A DNA stretch of 64,000 nt from a virus (lineage: Duplodnaviria; Caudoviricetes). Positions 1,418 through 9,738 of the stretch are shown piece by piece. The stretch spans positions 1 through 64,000 of the IMG/VR virus record IMGVR_UViG_3300037067_006927. One strand, given 5' to 3'. A program made the position numbers and the translations under genes. Every line of letters begins with the position of its first letter. The first letter of the stretch is position 1. The notes beneath the pieces were generated by a model, which saw nothing but the letters and a program-made list of their open reading frames with translations, made no database searches and was not told the origin of the DNA.

Positions 1418-2358
1418 GCCGCCTTCTCCTTCTCTTCCGCCACGTCGCTTACCCGGATCCGCCCAAACCCGAACGCCGTCCGTCCACCCATCCCGAGCCC
1501 GCGAGCTGCGCACTCTAGCAGCCAGCGGCACGGCGCGTTGACGTCTGCCACGAAGTACCCGGAGCACCCGAGCACGGCGCCGAACTTACCACCGAGGTCT
1601 ACGCGCACCGTCTCCGTCCGCTTCTCGAGCAGTCGAAACTGGAGCCGAAGATGGTCGAGCCCGAGGCGGCGCGGCAGCCATGAGGAGATGGTGCTGCACA
1701 GGTTGCCCTCGGTCGGGTTCACCCGTGTGATCGCTCCGCCCATCGAGCGGATGGTGAGCGGTGTCAGCAGGTCGACGCGCACCGTCTGGTGACCGCGCTT
1801 GGTGACCTGCGGTGAACGCAGTCGCGTGAATGGACCGCACCGCACGAGTACGGATTGATCGGCAACCTGAGCGGGCCAGGCGTGGCCAGCGAGTCGCCGT
1901 GCAACGGCCTCGTCTGCGATCCACACCGCCCACTGTCCGCGCCCGTGGTCCATCGGCACGAGCGTGAACATCGGCATCGTCTCGTGATGCGGGATCGCTG
2001 TGAGCTCGGTCATCACACCGTGGAGCAGTCTAGCGTTCCGGAGCTCGAGCGGCCAGCGCAACGCGGGCGCGAACGCGATCGTGAATCCGCCACCGGGGAG
2101 GACGTCGGCATATGGAGGAGGGCCGAGCAGCCACGGGCGTTCCTCGCGATCGGTCTTCTTGGCGGCATACCAGGCCGCGCACCGCTCGCGGGTCTTCTTC
2201 ACCACGTCGGGTCGGCCGGCGTCCTTGTCGCGGTATCGGCAGCGCGACGAGCAGTAGGTGTGCCGCGGAGATTTGGGAGTGAAGGTGACATAGCATCCGG
2301 TCGCACCGCACGTCCGAGGAGTGGCGTCCCATCCCTTCGGAATCCCAACCGCCGTCAC
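1414..2358 (-). CDS. cas6: Cas6-like RAMP endoribonuclease with N-terminal Cys4 Zn-finger-like extension (314 aa)
   Basis: C-terminal glycine-rich loop GLGMGGRTAFGFGRIRV, internal RAMP strand VRVDLLTPLTIRS, and N-terminal CGATGC...YCSSRC. GTG start at 2358 overlaps the csf3 stop. Confidence 0.8.
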   Translation of the reverse strand: MTAVGIPKGWDATPRTCGATGCYVTFTPKSPRHTYCSSRCRYRDKDAGRPDVVKKTRERCAAWYAAKKTDREERPWLLGPPPYADVLPGGGFTIAFAPALRWPLELRNARLLHGVMTELTAIPHHETMPMFTLVPMDHGRGQWAVWIADEAVARRLAGHAWPAQVADQSVLVRCGPFTRLRSPQVTKRGHQTVRVDLLTPLTIRSMGGAITRVNPTEGNLCSTISSWLPRRLGLDHLRLQFRLLEKRTETVRVDLGGKFGAVLGCSGYFVADVNAPCRWLLECAARGLGMGGRTAFGFGRIRVSDVAEEKEKAA

Positions 2359-3089
2359 GTCGCCACCCGCACGATCGGGACCATGCAATCGGCGAGCGAT
2401 GCTCGGTGCCAATACGGCGCGCGTGTCGTGGCCTTCCGCACCGCGAACGTCCCGGGCCTCGGGTGAATGTCGGCGCCACTCGGGATCGCGCGCATCAGCC
2501 GTCCCTGTTCGAGTAGCGAGCGTTGCTGCGGGTCCGCCAGTATCTCCCAGCCCATCACGCAACCGAGGCCACCGGAGCGACAGCGGCCGATGTGGCTGAC
2601 GTCCGGCAACAACTCGGTCAGCAATGCGCGGTTGCCGACCACGTGGAAATCAACCCACGCGGCTACCAGAGTCGGGATTGGGATCTGCTCGCTCTTGTAC
2701 TCGGCCATCGCGACATTGACCTTCGCGAGTCCGTAGGATTCTGCGCGGGCGCGCTTGCGACGCATCCGCACATCCTCCTTTGCTCCCGGAGCCGGCTGCG
2801 CCCACGACGCGAGCGCGATTGGGTATCCCGCCATGTCCTGGTCAGCGATGGGGATCGGGATGGGTGTGAGCGAGTCGCGAGGAGCGTCGGCGAATGCCTC
2901 CTCCGGATCCATCCCGGAGGCGAGGGAGACTACCGCGTATTGCAGCGCTCCCTCGCACGAGACGCCATTATACGGGTCCCACGCCAGTGGCGCCGAGAGC
3001 CACGCGCGCAGCGTGAGCGGCTCCGAGCTAGCGCACGCCCACCGCTCGGCGGCGGTGAGCCACGGTGGCGAGTGGGTCACGGGTCGCAT
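2355..3089 (-). CDS. csf3: Type IV Cas5-family protein Csf3 (244 aa)
   Basis: N-terminal RAMP strand PLTLRAWLSAPLA...EGAL, glycine loop HIGRCRSGGLGCV and C-terminal TRAPYWH, all typical of Csf3. GGAG RBS before ATG 3089. Confidence 0.88.
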   Translation of the reverse strand: MRPVTHSPPWLTAAERWACASSEPLTLRAWLSAPLAWDPYNGVSCEGALQYAVVSLASGMDPEEAFADAPRDSLTPIPIPIADQDMAGYPIALASWAQPAPGAKEDVRMRRKRARAESYGLAKVNVAMAEYKSEQIPIPTLVAAWVDFHVVGNRALLTELLPDVSHIGRCRSGGLGCVMGWEILADPQQRSLLEQGRLMRAIPSGADIHPRPGTFAVRKATTRAPYWHRASLADCMVPIVRVAT

Positions 3090-3649
3090 CGCTTCTCCAG
3101 TAGTCCAGCGTCTTCGTTCGTGAAAGCGTGCTCCCCAAATAGTTCTCGAGCCGCATTGTCGTACACGCGTGCCGCTTCCTCTTCGTCAATGAAGAGCCCC
3201 AGAAACATCAGCCTGCCTCGAGCCCCGGCGGGGTCTGGGATGGTGATGTGGCACCCCCACTTTCTGTTCGCCTTATACCAAGAAACTCCCTTGAATCTGC
3301 TGGACCCGCTCCTGGACCTTGAGTTTCTACCGTTCTCTGACTTTGTTACCAGACGAAGGTTGGTAACTCGATTATCTAGTCCGTCGTGGTTCACATGGTC
3401 AACGTCACGACACCTTGTAGCACTCAATATGACGCGATGCATCAACGCTCCAGAATTCGCCCCCCTGGCATAATAGCCACTGGTGCATCTGGACCACTGG
3501 GCAACCCATAGAACTCCAGAAACAGCCTCGTAGCTTTCAGAGGATACTACTGCTGCCTGCCCCCTAGTAAGCGGGATCTCAACCGCCCCATCTTTTCGGA
3601 TTACTGGTTCCTTGCCCCTCATGCACTTGTCGCGTATTGACGGGGACAT
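3077..3649 (-). CDS. Free-standing HNH endonuclease with AP2 DNA-binding domain (homing-endonuclease type, 190 aa)
   Basis: HRVIL...DVDHVNHDGLDNRVTNLR...SENGRN (HNH) followed by SRFKGVSWYKANRKW...LGLF..EEEAARVYD (AP2). Inserted between csf2 and csf3, and visibly more AT-rich codons. Confidence 0.9.
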   Translation of the reverse strand: MSPSIRDKCMRGKEPVIRKDGAVEIPLTRGQAAVVSSESYEAVSGVLWVAQWSRCTSGYYARGANSGALMHRVILSATRCRDVDHVNHDGLDNRVTNLRLVTKSENGRNSRSRSGSSRFKGVSWYKANRKWGCHITIPDPAGARGRLMFLGLFIDEEEAARVYDNAARELFGEHAFTNEDAGLLEKRCDP

Positions 3650-3651
3650 GG

Positions 3652-5139
3652 TTAGAACGCCTCCTCAGCTGCTGCCAGTTCCTCCGCCGGAACGTCAGCA
3701 GTCCTGGTCTTCCCACGGGTCTTTCCTGATCGCAGTGGAGCCGACGGTTCGTTCTTCATCATTGCCCACTCAATCGCGGCGTCCTTGTTCTTCTCAACAT
3801 GGTCAATGTACACGGTTGGGTCCGGTAGTTCAGGTGTTCCCGGTCCTGGTTGGTATGGGTTGAACGAGATGAGCCCCATACCCCTAGCGCTTTGGGCCCC
3901 AACCACGCCATAGGATCCAAACTCTTCCAGCGCGTCAGCCAGGCAGGACGCGGTTACCGGGTTAACGCCGTCGATTGAAAATACCTGAAGTGAATGGACC
4001 ATCTGTGCACCTGCCAGCAGAAGCTCTACGTTGAAGAGCATCGCATCGCTCTTACCTTTTTCGATCATCTTCTGCGTGCGATCGATGTCTCGGTGGTCAT
4101 GGCGCGTCCCCAGGCGTAACTGGGTTAGTTCAGCCGCTTCAGGTAGTGTGGCCGCCCATTCATCCAGGTTCTTCGTCTCCACACCCATCGCCTGGTGAAC
4201 GGCCCATGCGTTCTCTTTGCACACCAGAACCGCGTCATGGATTCTGGCCCTTCCCGCCATAATCTGCGCATCGGTGCACCCGCCGAGCAGATCCCACGGA
4301 GGGCACATGGTGCGCGCCATCGTGCGGATGTCCACCCGAACCGAGCCGGTATCTGCCCCGGCCTCGACGTTGCCACCCGATAGCATAGCGTGCGCCCTCT
4401 CTGGAGGAATATCTCGAGCCCGCAGCCCGAGCAACCCGAGCCACCTGCCCATCACCATGTCGCGCAGCAGACCGCGCACCGCGTTTCCGGCCATGAACGG
4501 CACGTAAGCGTGCTGTCCAGTGAGCGCGTCGATCACGCGGTGGCGGCGGAACAGGTTGACGTTCCCGCTCTTCTCGTCGGCGCCGTGAGCCATCGGGCTC
4601 GTGAGCGTCCAGACGGTGCGGAAACTGCGCGGTTGGATCATCTGGTCCGGGAGCTTCACGCGAGCGCGCCCGCCCTTCGTCGGCTCCGGGTAGGCGTCGA
4701 ACGACTCGTACTCCGCTCGGAGCATGTCGTCGTCCAGGTCCCGCGTGCTGCTGCTGGCGAACGTGGCGAGGAAATCCGGGTTCTCGTGGATGATCAGGCG
4801 CAGGTCCCGGTAGTCGATCGCCGCCAGCGCCCGATCCCAACGCAGGCGCCCCGTCGGCATCCAGAGCTCGACGGGGCCATACTCGCCATCTCCCGTGGAC
4901 TCGATTCCGAAGCGCGTGCAGAACGCGCGGTAGAACGCCAGGCACGATCGCTCGCTCACCACGAGCGGGATCAGACTCGACCCTATTTCAGAAGAGACTG
5001 AGCTGTACCGATTTGATCCCAGCACCTCGGCCCGCATTCGGATCCGGGTCGCTCGGAGCAGATACGCGAGCAACCGCCGCGCGTTCGTGGTCGTCTTCTC
5101 GATGGTCTTCGGGTCGATCTCGTTCTCGGGTCGGTGCAT
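3652..5139 (-). CDS. csf2: Type IV Cas7-family backbone Csf2 with fused N-terminal helical, Cas11-like small-subunit domain (495 aa)
   Basis: From about aa 170: WTLTSPMAHG, VPFMAGNAVRGLLRD, CPPWDLLGG, GAQSARGMG (Csf2/Cas7). The first ~165 aa are helical and occupy the position of cas11 in type IV-B loci. GAAGGAGG RBS before ATG 5139. Confidence 0.88.
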   Translation of the reverse strand: MHRPENEIDPKTIEKTTTNARRLLAYLLRATRIRMRAEVLGSNRYSSVSSEIGSSLIPLVVSERSCLAFYRAFCTRFGIESTGDGEYGPVELWMPTGRLRWDRALAAIDYRDLRLIIHENPDFLATFASSSTRDLDDDMLRAEYESFDAYPEPTKGGRARVKLPDQMIQPRSFRTVWTLTSPMAHGADEKSGNVNLFRRHRVIDALTGQHAYVPFMAGNAVRGLLRDMVMGRWLGLLGLRARDIPPERAHAMLSGGNVEAGADTGSVRVDIRTMARTMCPPWDLLGGCTDAQIMAGRARIHDAVLVCKENAWAVHQAMGVETKNLDEWAATLPEAAELTQLRLGTRHDHRDIDRTQKMIEKGKSDAMLFNVELLLAGAQMVHSLQVFSIDGVNPVTASCLADALEEFGSYGVVGAQSARGMGLISFNPYQPGPGTPELPDPTVYIDHVEKNKDAAIEWAMMKNEPSAPLRSGKTRGKTRTADVPAEELAAAEEAF

Positions 5140-6007
5140 TGCGGGTGCCCTCCTTCGGGTCTTGTTTCTCTCGCTTCACGAGCGCCGGCATTCGCAGGAG
5201 CTCGACGAACAGCGGCCACCAGATAGCGCGGTGATGCGGCTCGATCGCATGAGTCAGGCCGCGCCACTGGCGCACGACGGCGATGGGCGCACTCGCCGGT
5301 GGCCGCATCGTCAGCAATGAAGTTGTGCATTCGTTCGAACCGACGCCACCATTGCGAAGCGCGCCGAGAATCCGGTAGCAATCGGTACGCGCTTCCGTCC
5401 ACGTCTCGACGTCCACCAGCACATCGTGCACGTCGTCCACCTGGAGTGGGTACCGGTCGCGCGACGTGGACACCTGCGCATAGATGGCCACGTGCTTGGA
5501 CTGGAGCTTGACGAGCGGGTTCGACGGCGCTGGTCGTCCCGGAGAGTAGATGCGGTGCAGATTCTGCTCTCCGCCCTTGCTCACGCCCATGTGCGCCCAC
5601 CCGGCAACGAACGGGGCCGGCGGCGGGCTGAGCAACGAGTCCAGCGTCTCGACGCGCGTTCCAGGAATCGCGTGACCTTTGCCGTCTGCGTCCTTCACGA
5701 TCCACGGCCGCGTCGGTACGTCCCAAATACCGTTCTCGCGCGCGAACCAGAGCGAGCAGCGGAGCCGGAGCGATTTGCAGGACATCAGGCACGCTGCGCA
5801 CACCTCGCGCGTCCCGAATGGCCAGGCGCGCGATGCGTTCTTGACGCTCGTGAATGAACTCGAGATCGCCTGGTCGAGCCGGTACCACGCTTGATCTCCA
5901 CAGTGAGCGCACGGGCCGCCCTTGCCCTTGCGCGGGATTGGCTCGCCGGTCGTCTCGTGCGGATCCGGTGAGCCGAGTCCGGCATAGATGATGTGGGTTG
6001 CGATCAC
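4988..6007 (-). CDS. csf1: Type IV Cas8-like large subunit Csf1 (339 aa), ending in QLSLF
   Basis: Zn-binding CAHCG and CAACLMSC motifs, PPPAPFVA and KLQSKHVAIYA segments, and position upstream of csf2. GTG start at 6007 overlaps an upstream TGA. The 3' end overlaps the first 152 nt of csf2. Confidence 0.82.
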   Translation of the reverse strand: MIATHIIYAGLGSPDPHETTGEPIPRKGKGGPCAHCGDQAWYRLDQAISSSFTSVKNASRAWPFGTREVCAACLMSCKSLRLRCSLWFARENGIWDVPTRPWIVKDADGKGHAIPGTRVETLDSLLSPPPAPFVAGWAHMGVSKGGEQNLHRIYSPGRPAPSNPLVKLQSKHVAIYAQVSTSRDRYPLQVDDVHDVLVDVETWTEARTDCYRILGALRNGGVGSNECTTSLLTMRPPASAPIAVVRQWRGLTHAIEPHHRAIWWPLFVELLRMPALVKREKQDPKEGTRNAPTRERDRPEDHREDDHERAAVARVSAPSDPDPNAGRGAGIKSVQLSLF

Positions 6008-8601
6008 TTTGCCGCCTCCGCCCCCTCCTCCGTCCTCTGCCAGCAGTACCCAGGTATCCGCGCCCCGTCGATCGGGTCCCTCCGGTAGTACCGCACCATC
6101 CGCACGAGTCCGAGCGCGGCGAGCTCGCGCAGCGTGGCCTCCTCGTCGTCGGTCGACGGGAACCGGGCGCCAGGTTGCTCCGGGCACTGGCGCAGGGTGG
6201 CGAGCTGGGTTGGGGTGAGCGTCATTGCGTGCTATCCTCCTCGTCACGTCGGTTCCAGTCGTCGAGGTAGTCGCACCGGCAATCAGCGTCGTCGCAAACC
6301 CCGCCGGCAAGGCACCCGTCGCATGGTGGAGAGCAGCATACCGGGCAGCAGTGGCACGCCAGAGCAGCCGCTCGGATGTGGGCGTGGTAGGACTCGGAGT
6401 CTGGCGGCATTGCGTCTTCCGTTTTATCCAGCGGGCGCTCGGTGGCCCAGTCGTCGCGCTCGTCTAGTACATCCTCGATGTTTCGCGCCGACTCGAACGA
6501 CGACATGCTTCCGGACTTCATGGCCTGGTTTTCGCCTTCTCGGATCGATGCCGCATGATGCGCGCCAGACGCTCGACAACGGGGCGCCACTTCTCTTTGT
6601 CGCAGTAGCGACATTGATCTGGCCCTCCGTCCATCGCCGGCTCGCCCCGGTACTCCTGCTCGAGCCGCTTGCAGTAGCAGTGCTGGGCGCGGGCCCAGAA
6701 CAGAGCCGCTCGAGCGACCCATAGCCAGGCGCGTTTCGCATCAGCGAAGCCCTTGCGCTGGACGTAGGACTCGCGATCATCTGGGGAGTTGCCCATGGTC
6801 GGCACCTCGCGCGAGGCGAAATAGCGGGGGACCCGGCGGCAGGTGACGCCGTTGGTTGGAGCGAGCTGGTGATCGGTCGGGTCAGCCACGGCGCTCCTCC
6901 CATCGCGAGCAGGACTCGTAATCGCACCACAGGGTTTCGCTTTCCGAGCAGACACCGTCGCCGGTCGTAACGTCGTCTTCGACCATCTCTCTCCAATGCT
7001 CGCACCCGTCGCACCTCCGCCGGCTGATCTGCACGAGCTCGCGGACGCGGGGTCTGCACAGTTCTCCGACTACGATTCCTCGGGCGGTGACTCCACAAAT
7101 CTGAACCATCGTCTCCATCGTGTCGTTGACGCTCTCCAGCAGTTCGCACGTTCGCGTGCACCGTGGCTCTCCGCTGCTCTCGTCGGGTTGGTGGCGGTCA
7201 GGCATTGTCGTCCCTTCCGGCACGGTTGGCGGCGTCGATCAAATCCTCCAACGCCTCCACCGGGTCGCCATTCGGTTCGAGCAACCCTGCGCGAAACAGG
7301 CGCGCGATCAGTGCTGGGCCCAGTGCTTCGGCATGGCGACGGACGTTGTTCTGGTATGCACTGGCGAACAACGCAGCAAGTTCACCGTGCTCCTCCGGCT
7401 CCCACGGTAGCCAGCAGCAACAGGCGCCCATGTCCGACTCGGTGGATCGGAGCGGCATCGTTTCTTCTAGCCCGACGAGCCCGGGATGGAATCGCTCACC
7501 CACCTTCCACCTCGATTCCCAACGCGGCGCAGAGCTCGCGCATCGTGGTCCCACCCGCCAATACCGTTCGTTCGTCGCCGCCCCAGTCGATCGCCGCCAT
7601 GCGACCGTCGACGATTTGTACCCCCCGCGTCCCCGGGCATTCCATGAGCCACGTCTCGATCTCGCGCGTGGCGGCGACATCGCGACGGGCCGCTTTCGCC
7701 TCCGTGGCCAGCTCGTGCGCCAGGCGCATGACCTCGTTGTCGTCCTGGTCAACCGACTCGGCGGTACCTGGTCCGCCAAGCGTGTCTACCACATGGCACA
7801 AGCGCGCATGGAGCATCGCGCAGTGGGACTCGAGCTCAGCGATTCGCGCGCGGGCGGAGTCCAGAGCGTTCTCCGCGGCCGCAGCCTTGGCGCCGAGCTC
7901 GCGGTACCCGTCCAGCTTCTCGTCGCACGCGCGCTCGACCATGAACTGGTAGTTCTTCTGCGCCTTGTCCCGCTCCTTCTCCACCCGAGCGAACTCCGAG
8001 GCAGTCGGGAACAGTGCGTCCAGCGGGTTCTCCCCGCCGTGCTCGAGGTAGTGCAGATACCTCTCCGTTTGCTCCGGCGTCAGAGCCTGGGAGGTCAGCA
8101 GCGGGCAGGTTTCGCACTTGTCGATGGCGCTCATGCCTTTCCCTCCAGAATCTCGTCCACCGTAAGTGCACGATCGCCCCACTCGGACCAGCGCCCACCG
8201 GCAACGTCCAGCGCTGACTGGATGCGGGCTTCGAGCTCCGCGCCGCGCGATCTGTCCTTCTCCGCCGCCGCAACCGCCAGCGTCCTCAGCAACTCTACCG
8301 CCTTGCCGAAGCTGATCTCCTCGCCGTCGAGCCGACCAAGTATCTCGCGCACGGCCTCGTAGGTGATGCCGGAATCGCGCGCCCAGGAGAACTCACGCTC
8401 AGACTGGGCGAGGTAGGAGGACAGGACGCTGGACAGCCTCTGGTTACGCGCCCGCAACCTCGCGCACGCATGGCGGGCACCGGCGCGGATGCGTAGGGCC
8501 TCGAAAGTCGCTTCGCCAGACCACCAGTGAGCAACCCTCTTCAGATGCCCTGGAAGGCAGAAGAAGTCGTGCGGGAACGGGTTTCTCCAGTGCTCGGTCA
8601 T
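6004..8601 (-). other. Run of small hypothetical early genes (about 6004-6225, 6222-6521, 6518-6796, 6882-7223, 7198-7503, 7496-8134, 8131-8601), several Cys-rich
   Basis: Consecutive minus-strand ORFs with ATGA/GTGA overlaps and GC3-biased codons. No family recognised. Confidence 0.6.
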
Positions 8602-8610
8602 AGCTCCTCC

Positions 8611-9738
8611 TCAGATCCTGAGTGGCATCACGATCGCCAGGTAGCTCCCGCCCGACGTCACCGTTCCCGGCTTGACCACGATCGGATCCAGATCGCCACC
8701 AAGCTCCAACGTAACCTCTTCGGAGTCGATCGCCAACAGCGCGTCGAGCAGATACGGTGCGTTGACTCCGATTGCATCCGGGCACTTCGCGTCACTGGCG
8801 ATCGGCACCGTGTCCGACCCTTCGCCGCTCTCCGGGCTCGATGCCTCAATCAGAATCTTGCCGCCCCCTATCTTGAGACTGATGCCCCCCGTCCGCCCGC
8901 TCGACGACACGGACACGGCGCGGATCGCATCAGCGAACGCCAGTCTCGGGACCGCGAGCGACGTCTGCGAGGACTCCGGAATCACCTGCTGATAGGGCGG
9001 GAACACCGCGTCCGCGAGCTTCACCGACGTCCGGAATCCGGCGACGTCGAAGAACGCATTTGGCATCGACAGCGTCACCGACACGATCGCTCCCGGGTCA
9101 TCCTCGATCAGGCGCTTGAGCTCCAGGATGCCGCGCCGCGGGACCAGCGCGGACAGCGCAGCGCCGACCACGTCCGTCGTCTTCGTGGCGACCGCGAGCC
9201 GATGGCCATCGGTTGCGACCATGCGCACCACGCCGCGCTCGACCTCGAATAGGGCTCCGTTCAGGTGCACGCGCGTCTCGTCGTCGGCGATGGCGGATGA
9301 CGTCTGTGCGATCAGGGTGGCCAGCGTTTCCGCCGGCAGGTCGATCGTCCTCGACTCCTCCGCCGGAGTCGGCAGCGTCGGGAACTCATCGCCCGGAATG
9401 CCCTGCACGGTGAATCGACGCGACGACCCTACCGCCTTGATCGTGGCCGCGCAGGCGTCGGTGGTCGAGATCGCAATCTCGCCGTCGGGCATCGCGCGCA
9501 GCCGCTCGAGTAGGCCACGGGCGCCGAGTGCGATCGTGCCGCCGCTCTTGACCGTGGCTGGCACACTTCCGCTTACCGCGAGTTGCAGGTCTGTTGCGGC
9601 GATGGTCAACGTGTTCGCCTCGTCGTCCGCGGTGAGGAGCACGTTTTCGAGGATCGGCATCGTGCTCTTGCGGGACGCCACCCCGACGCAACGTGATAGC
9701 AGATGGACGATCGTTCGCTTGGCTATGGTGATGATCAC
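8611..9738 (-). CDS. dnaN: DNA polymerase III beta sliding clamp, phage-encoded (375 aa)
   Basis: MPILENVLL, AATDLQL, ETRVHLNG, VATDGHRLA, FPPYQQVIP, GVNAPYLLDAL and the C-terminal VMPLRI all follow the DnaN pattern. GTG start at 9738 overlaps an upstream TGA. Confidence 0.95.
   Translation of the reverse strand: MIITIAKRTIVHLLSRCVGVASRKSTMPILENVLLTADDEANTLTIAATDLQLAVSGSVPATVKSGGTIALGARGLLERLRAMPDGEIAISTTDACAATIKAVGSSRRFTVQGIPGDEFPTLPTPAEESRTIDLPAETLATLIAQTSSAIADDETRVHLNGALFEVERGVVRMVATDGHRLAVATKTTDVVGAALSALVPRRGILELKRLIEDDPGAIVSVTLSMPNAFFDVAGFRTSVKLADAVFPPYQQVIPESSQTSLAVPRLAFADAIRAVSVSSSGRTGGISLKIGGGKILIEASSPESGEGSDTVPIASDAKCPDAIGVNAPYLLDALLAIDSEEVTLELGGDLDPIVVKPGTVTSGGSYLAIVMPLRI

Follow-up and report, generated by a model that had tools for sequence, protein, structure and literature searches.

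The window analysed here is the first 64 kb of a 90,120-bp IMG/VR record, which is rated 100% complete and has a GC content of about 65%. Its minus strand carries an operon of type IV CRISPR-Cas genes together with a gene for a beta sliding clamp (Table 1). All three core genes, csf1, csf2 and csf3, are matched by PADLOC. The gene downstream of csf1 had been called csf2 in the initial annotation. This is right for its Csf2 part, but the gene is more exactly a cas11::csf2 fusion, and it is the cas11 part that is overprinted by the tail of csf1. The first 175 residues of the fusion were modelled with a pLDDT of 89.7. In an all-against-all structural alignment, the Cas11-like domain was matched to the type IV-B Cas11 chain 7jhy_h with a Z of 9.0 and an rmsd of 3.9 Å over 119 residues, the next match having a Z of 4.0. 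For the same N-terminal domain, BLASTP against two stand-alone Cas11 proteins returned nothing and Foldseek against the PDB gave no significant match. The fusion is kept in all related loci, and the cysH-like gene is found in most of those long enough to reach it. From the gene set and the Cas11 fold match, the locus is regarded as a type IV-B-like module carried by the phage, with cas11 fused to csf2. No CRISPR-like repeats were found in the 90-kb genome.

Table 1. Location of the type IV-B-like genes, the features within the csf1/cas11 overlap and the sliding clamp gene in the window
Feature	Position	Strand	Remarks
cysH-like gene, PAPS-reductase family	647-1567	minus	Pfam PAPS_reduct 3.2e-17; longest ORF, true start possibly further downstream
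Cas6-like ORF, weak	1414-2562	minus	Between csf3 and cysH; E = 0.002-0.01
csf3 (Cas5)	2355-3089	minus	PADLOC type IV Cas5 8.9e-26
HNH/AP2 homing endonuclease	3077-3649	minus	Between csf2 and csf3
cas11::csf2 fusion	3652-5139	minus	495 aa; residues 1 to about 165 Cas11-like, 172-458 Cas7 (Csf2); PADLOC type IV Cas7 1.8e-44
csf1 (Cas8-like large subunit)	4988-6007	minus	339 aa; GTG start 6007, TGA stop 4990-4988; PADLOC Csf1 model 4.5e-9
Dual-coding overlap, 152 nt	4988-5139	minus	Frame 1, Csf1 tail; frame 2, N-terminal helices of the Cas11-like domain
QLSLF, beta-clamp-binding-type motif	4991-5005	minus	Last five residues of Csf1; TGA stop at 4988-4990
Csf1 linker, disordered	5006-5182	minus	About residues 276-334; AF2 pLDDT and free divergence among homologues
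Shine-Dalgarno GAAGGAGG for cas11::csf2	5149-5156	minus	Located within csf1
Several small genes	Between dnaN and csf1	minus	
Phage dnaN (beta sliding clamp)	8611-9738	minus	375 aa from GTG 9738; three Pfam beta-clamp domains

The HNH gene is a recent insertion, since the closest relatives, L002 and L015, have csf3 directly after csf2. In the locus L005, a Cas6-like gene is found upstream of csf1 instead. A Cas6 is a rare exception in type IV-B (PMC7038947).

The csf1 frame is open without interruption from its GTG start to the TGA stop. The start codon forms a GTGA overlap with the stop of a small ORF and is preceded by a G-rich ribosome-binding stretch. This ORF (6004-6225, minus strand, 73 aa) has a high GC3 and is translationally coupled to the csf1 start through the GTGA. 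Small genes also lie directly upstream of csf1 in L002 and L005, a likeness of position that does not imply homology to ORF 6004-6225. At the other end of csf1, the last five codons (CAG CTC AGT CTC TTC, 5005-4991) encode QLSLF. The ATG of cas11::csf2 at 5139 follows a strong AAGGAGG site, so that the two genes share 152 nt. This read-through into the next gene and the terminal QLSLF-stop had been described in the initial annotation, and all of its coordinates were confirmed. Each of its sequence-level predictions was also put to the test, and most were borne out.

The base composition changes where the second frame begins. The GC3 of the csf1 frame is 0.8-0.95 upstream of 5139 and 0.4-0.6 past this position. 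In the csf2 frame, GC3 past 5139 is 0.85-1.0 and drops to 0.55-0.65 exactly across 5050-4960, where the motif is located. The csf2-frame codons at this dip are TCA, TCT, TCT, GAA and ATA, which include the atypical ones pointed out at first reading (TCA, TCT and ATA). A csf2 start after the csf1 stop (GTG 4962 or 4959) was ruled out: the N-terminal 60 residues are conserved family-wide, are confidently folded and stand behind a strong ribosome-binding site. An error in assembly is excluded as well, because contigs from an independent landfill metagenome show zero differences over 4829-6066. No RNA data set with the locus was listed for public runs. Both a sequencing error and a recent loss of the stop had been named as possible origins of the overlap; they are dismissed by these identical contigs together with the free-standing tails of relatives described below.

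QL(S/D)LF at C-termini is the stated consensus by which bacterial proteins bind the beta clamp (PMC9690074). When all six frames of the 90,120-bp genome were searched for QL[SD]LF, the end of Csf1 was the single occurrence. The expectation by chance is 0.035 anywhere in the genome, and 200 shuffles gave no occurrence at an ORF end; by this estimate the terminal motif of Csf1 is not a product of chance.

Csf1 itself is recognised by neither Pfam nor NCBIfam, only by PADLOC and by fold search. In the AF2 model the core has a pLDDT above 90, and its closest structures are the type IV-A Csf1 chains 7xg1_A and 8rc3_G (Foldseek probability 1.0). The pLDDT is still 88 at residues 271-280 and falls to 40-50 from about residue 299 to the end, and no secondary structure is modelled past residue 270. 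The tail is thus modelled as disordered, with the motif exposed as its last five residues.

A tail of this kind might be accidental, either because a stop is missing in a GC-rich off-frame or because its conservation merely mirrors that of Cas11. Off-frame stops are rare at 65% GC, the GC3 of the csf1 frame is non-coding-like past 5139, and Cas11 is conserved over the overlap, all of which would fit such an accident. The third bases of the cas11 codons speak against it. Family-wide, the Cas11 site in question consists of an invariant Arg, five variable residues and an invariant Glu. The variable residues are mostly Arg-rich or mixed in relatives with a tail-less Csf1 or a free tail, and Ser/Asn/Ser-rich in the overlap loci. 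For five of the six cas11 codons before the Glu, the third base is at the same time the first base of a csf1 codon of the motif or stop (Q, L2, L4, F and stop). The third base of the sixth codon, beneath the variable third motif residue, is free. Among ten overlap loci, third-base entropy at those five codons is 0.47 bit compared with 1.35 bit over 40 flanking codons (permutation p <1e-5), where part of the apparent conservation in the overlap loci is forced by Cas11, whose invariant Glu supplies the GA of the csf1 TGA stop.

The Cas11 residues at the motif codons do vary (S/N, S/Y and S/G). The S/N change (AGC/AAC) turns CAG into CAA and keeps the Gln of the csf1 frame, while the S/Y change (TCT/TAT) turns CTC into CTA and keeps the Leu. 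Codons ending in T are retained at the motif although the GC3 of the genome is near 0.85. Third bases that stay invariant while the Cas11 residues vary indicate that the csf1 frame is under selection at the motif, and the cas11 frame in the stretch around it. Coding in the cas11 frame is further indicated by its high GC3, strong ribosome-binding site, conserved fold and family-wide homology. The first 60 residues of the Cas11 domain, 50 of which are encoded by the overlap, have a pLDDT of 87-98, and the motif-encoding residues (about 44-51) form a short turn between long helices in the model. Selection in both frames, as first proposed from the codons, is supported by third-base invariance and by motif and stop conservation on the csf1 side, and by Cas11 conservation on the other. 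On this comparative evidence, the overlap is a pair of overprinted genes with both frames under selection.

The tail was followed through the relatives of Csf1. A protein search yielded 39 full-length homologues with identities down to 38%, most of which end in Q-x-x-L-F after linkers that cannot be aligned. In a profile search of 1.84 billion representatives, only 52 clusters were found at E <1e-30, and the Csf1 family considered here is therefore small. The survey of tails comprised 48 representative clusters (50% identity) with an intact C-terminal region, in which Qxx[LM][FWL], QxxLx[FL] or a near-terminal form was scored as a motif. A tail with a clamp-type motif (penta-, hexa- or near-terminal) was observed in 15 clusters and a tail without the motif in 3, while the other 30 have no tail. 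About 60% of the clusters are tail-less, which makes the tail an accessory feature, dispensable for the core function. In the tail alignment (A2), conservation is confined to Q, L4 and F/W, and the linker diverges freely. Variants of the motif in the family include QGSLF, QQSLF, QRSLF and forms with a terminal W.

Other searches delimit where such proteins are found. GenBank phages gave no matches by megablast of the locus or tblastn of Csf1. In a scan of viral contigs, a single-protein query likewise gave no matches and alignment-based queries recovered loci. A search seeded with a canonical IV-B Csf1 (P0115) returned 4 proteins, too few for a survey. More distant Csf1 proteins whose genes are followed by a separate gene of cas11 size also have QQLLF or QLQLF as their last residues. 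L053, which combines a distant Csf1 of clamp-type end with a separate cas11-sized gene, also contains csf3 and cysH in the canonical IV-B order.

For a comparison of gene layouts, 46 related loci were fetched, and the tipped tail was found in three arrangements. In the overlap layout, which is that of the window, the tail covers about 150 nt of cas11::csf2. In the free-standing layout, a Pro/Ala/Lys-rich tail ends before the csf2 start or overlaps it by a few bases at most. Seven distinct loci are of this type (L003, L011, L023, L028, L038, L039 and L040), with ends reading QLSLF, QISLF, QLNLW or QRSLF. The third layout is that of L007, where the tail also lies over cas11 and stops about eight codons earlier, with QLGLAF as its end. 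Because the seven free-standing tails carry the motif, it is not a by-product of the other frame. Homologues, including those of non-overlap loci, retain a terminal Qxx-L-F/W or Qxx-L-x-F, which answers the question raised at the outset, namely whether the motif is kept while the linker diverges. Furthermore, 12 ORFs of at least 60 aa match the strict terminal pattern in about 450 kb of related loci, and all of them are Csf1.

An accidental tail is hardly credible in light of these results. It is already contradicted by the comparative data: by the free-standing motifs, by the different cas11 position of the motif in L007, by third bases that do not follow the Cas11 residues, by the lack of a terminal match in 200 shuffles and by the restriction of the motif to Csf1 ORFs across all loci. 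A selected tail also fits its history. In a tree of the Csf1 core, at least 8 changes of tail state are required, and a grouping of all tail-bearers in one clade is rejected (AU p = 4.6e-5), by a test that was formulated once the tree was known.

Some further observations concern the ends of the subunits. In L046 (4432-4445; Pseudomonadota MAG), the Csf1 stop lies 14 nt into csf2, and tblastn still aligns the old tail frame past it, which looks like a recent loss of the tail. In many loci, Csf2 has an acidic tail that closes in F or L (...AAEEAF in the window, 3652-3700) and recalls SSB-type acidic tips. The Csf2 of L012, where Csf1 is tail-less, ends in LQGGLF and that of L021 in GQGALL. The clamp-type motif could have moved to another subunit in such loci.

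A possible partner of the motif is encoded nearby. The initial annotation had placed a phage dnaN 2.6 kb upstream of csf1 in the same arm; this was confirmed, and both genes are on the same strand. The phage DnaN can be aligned over its full length with beta clamps of solved structure. Its 50-53% identity to DnaN proteins from Polyangiaceae and Myxococcales suggests that the host is a myxobacterium. Pocket residues that are kept are L155, T172, G174, H175, R176, L177, P242, V247, N320, Y323, M362, P363 and R365 (E. coli numbering). In the phage DnaN and the closest cellular DnaN, 13 of the 21 positions that we take to line the peptide cleft of E. coli beta are identical, TxGHRL and MPxR among them. 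In two further phages with a tail, DnaN has all but one of the residues named above, N320 being replaced by Ser in L005. Judged by these residues, a clamp with an intact peptide-binding pocket is present. No Pfam match to Pol III alpha, PolA or PolB was obtained in the 90-kb phage.

The tail and a phage clamp coincide in part of the family. Three divergent phages with a tail (the window, L005 and L007) have their dnaN 2-3 kb upstream of csf1. These are three of the eight tail-bearing loci with enough flanking DNA (at least 4 kb). No dnaN was found within the DNA read in the other five, among them L002, the closest long relative, for which 20 kb were read upstream. For tail-less loci, which include four near-complete phage records, the DNA read contained no dnaN. 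The co-occurrence that had been suggested for csf1 tails and dnaN thus holds for three loci and is not seen in the DNA read for the other five, and with such small numbers and lineages that are not independent, a motif that tracks the phage dnaN is not established. The link of the tail to the phage-encoded clamp is suggestive only. Since the co-occurrence is partial, the host clamp would be at least as likely a partner as the phage DnaN.

The tail could also be selected for a partner other than the clamp. In this case it would dock to Cas11/Csf2, Csf3, the CysH-like enzyme or another phage protein, or serve as a C-terminal degron that sets Csf1 levels. Hydrophobic C-termini can act as protease tags, and this explanation would also be in line with the partial co-occurrence of dnaN and with the acidic Csf2 tails of the same loci, which likewise close in F or L. 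It is nevertheless unlikely, as the motif of the window is the exact clamp consensus and the variants of the family (penta QLxLF, hexa QxxLxF/L) fit two known classes of clamp motif, to which we presume they belong. The Q at position 1 is nearly invariant, and a degron would not need it.

A further alternative is that the clamp is bound in order to block it and not to recruit the complex. Csf1 would then occupy host clamps and inhibit replication of the host or of competitors in the manner of clamp-targeting toxins, independent of nucleic-acid binding by the ribonucleoprotein. The phage's own divergent DnaN, with about 50% identity to that of the likely host, could in principle escape such a blockade, and the phage has no match to PolA, PolB or Pol III alpha. 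However, the phage DnaN shares its pocket residues with the host-like DnaN and would be blocked too, and for most loci with a tail, the DNA read contains no phage dnaN. Across many lineages it is the large subunit of a multi-subunit complex that carries the motif, which fits recruitment better, and blocking must be considered quite improbable.

Overall, the Csf1 of this phage probably combines a folded Cas8-like core with a disordered linker of ~60 residues and a C-terminal motif of the beta-clamp class, overprinted in the lineage of the window, by which it would dock to the clamp. The motif, its conservation, the selection in two frames, the modelled disorder and the intact clamp pocket form the basis of this explanation, and from them we infer physical binding to the clamp, action at replication forks and the consequences of both. 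In the window lineage, linker and motif would have arisen by overprinting, as csf1 came to extend, in another frame, over codons 1-50 of cas11::csf2. Selection on the csf1 frame would preserve Q, L, F and the stop, and the price would be odd codons and Ser-rich residues in a Cas11 loop. The likeliest role of the tail would be to anchor the Csf ribonucleoprotein, together with the CysH-like enzyme associated with it, on sliding clamps, made of either phage DnaN or the host protein. A complex without helicase or nuclease would in this way be enriched at primer-template junctions and on freshly replicated DNA.

In the literature, type IV-B is presented as the CRISPR-Cas subtype that is most reduced and most enigmatic. 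Array, nuclease and helicase are all missing, and the RNA bound by its complex is heterogeneous (PMC7038947, PMC7937560, PMC8175902). A report linking type IV systems or Csf1 to the sliding clamp was not found in the literature searched, where type IV-B is described as enigmatic and cysH-linked; this agrees with the initial annotation, which knew of no such link for type IV effectors. A conserved and repeatedly evolved clamp-type peptide on Csf1 would be a clue that the complex acts on replicating DNA. A bolder proposal, to be taken as tentative and rather doubtful in its full extent, is that type IV-B systems have the sliding clamp as their missing partner. The Csf complex and the CysH-like enzyme would ride clamps left at forks and on lagging strands, where newly replicated DNA, either the phage's own or that of competing elements, would be marked, modified or obstructed, with the tether being gained and lost repeatedly. 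If true, the least understood CRISPR subtype would become a replication-coupled system. The locus is also a clean natural case of a short linear motif that appears to be made and kept by overprinting the structured domain of a neighboring gene.

When compared to known type IV systems, the phage module shares the Csf1 fold with type IV-A (7xg1_A, 8rc3_G), which differs in possessing a DinG helicase and an array, while the module has neither. No clamp-type C-terminus was found on the type IV-A Csf1 of the Aromatoleum, Burkholderia and Citrobacter plasmid loci. The resemblance to type IV-B, as represented by the complex of Mycobacterium sp. JS623 (PDB 7JHY, PMC7937560), comprises the same gene set and order (Csf1, Cas11, Csf2, Csf3 and a CysH-like neighbor), the shared Cas11 fold (7jhy_h, Z 9.0) and a 90-kb genome in which no array was found. 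In contrast to type IV-B, the module is phage-borne, has cas11 fused to csf2 and contains Cas6-like and HNH homing endonuclease genes in the operon, and its Csf1 is longer and bears the clamp-type tail. Three out of three plasmid type IV-B loci have no clamp-type motif on Csf1, and two of the three have none on Cas11. In the type IV-B locus on the Rhodovastum atsumiense plasmid (L059:3001-3471), the stand-alone Cas11 has QLELF three residues before its stop.

The cellular clients of the clamp (Pol II, Pol IV, UmuC, MutS, MutL and Hda; PMC9690074) likewise present a penta- or hexapeptide at the extreme C-terminus behind a flexible linker, and they act with a clamp whose binding pocket is conserved, as it is in this phage. 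These clients are polymerases and repair enzymes, whereas the carrier here, a putative client, is the large subunit of a CRISPR-Cas-type effector, and its motif lies in an alternative frame within another gene. Mobile elements also make use of the beta clamp, as described for TnsE of Tn7 and for IS transposases (PMC9690074; PMC3971601). The phage Csf1 is likewise a protein of a mobile element and would find actively replicating DNA through the clamp. The protein families are unrelated, and the output of TnsE and the IS transposases is transposition, while no transposase is linked to the phage module. By analogy, the best reading is that the tether of the phage Csf1 would work in the manner of the known clamp clients and conceptually like Tn7 TnsE.
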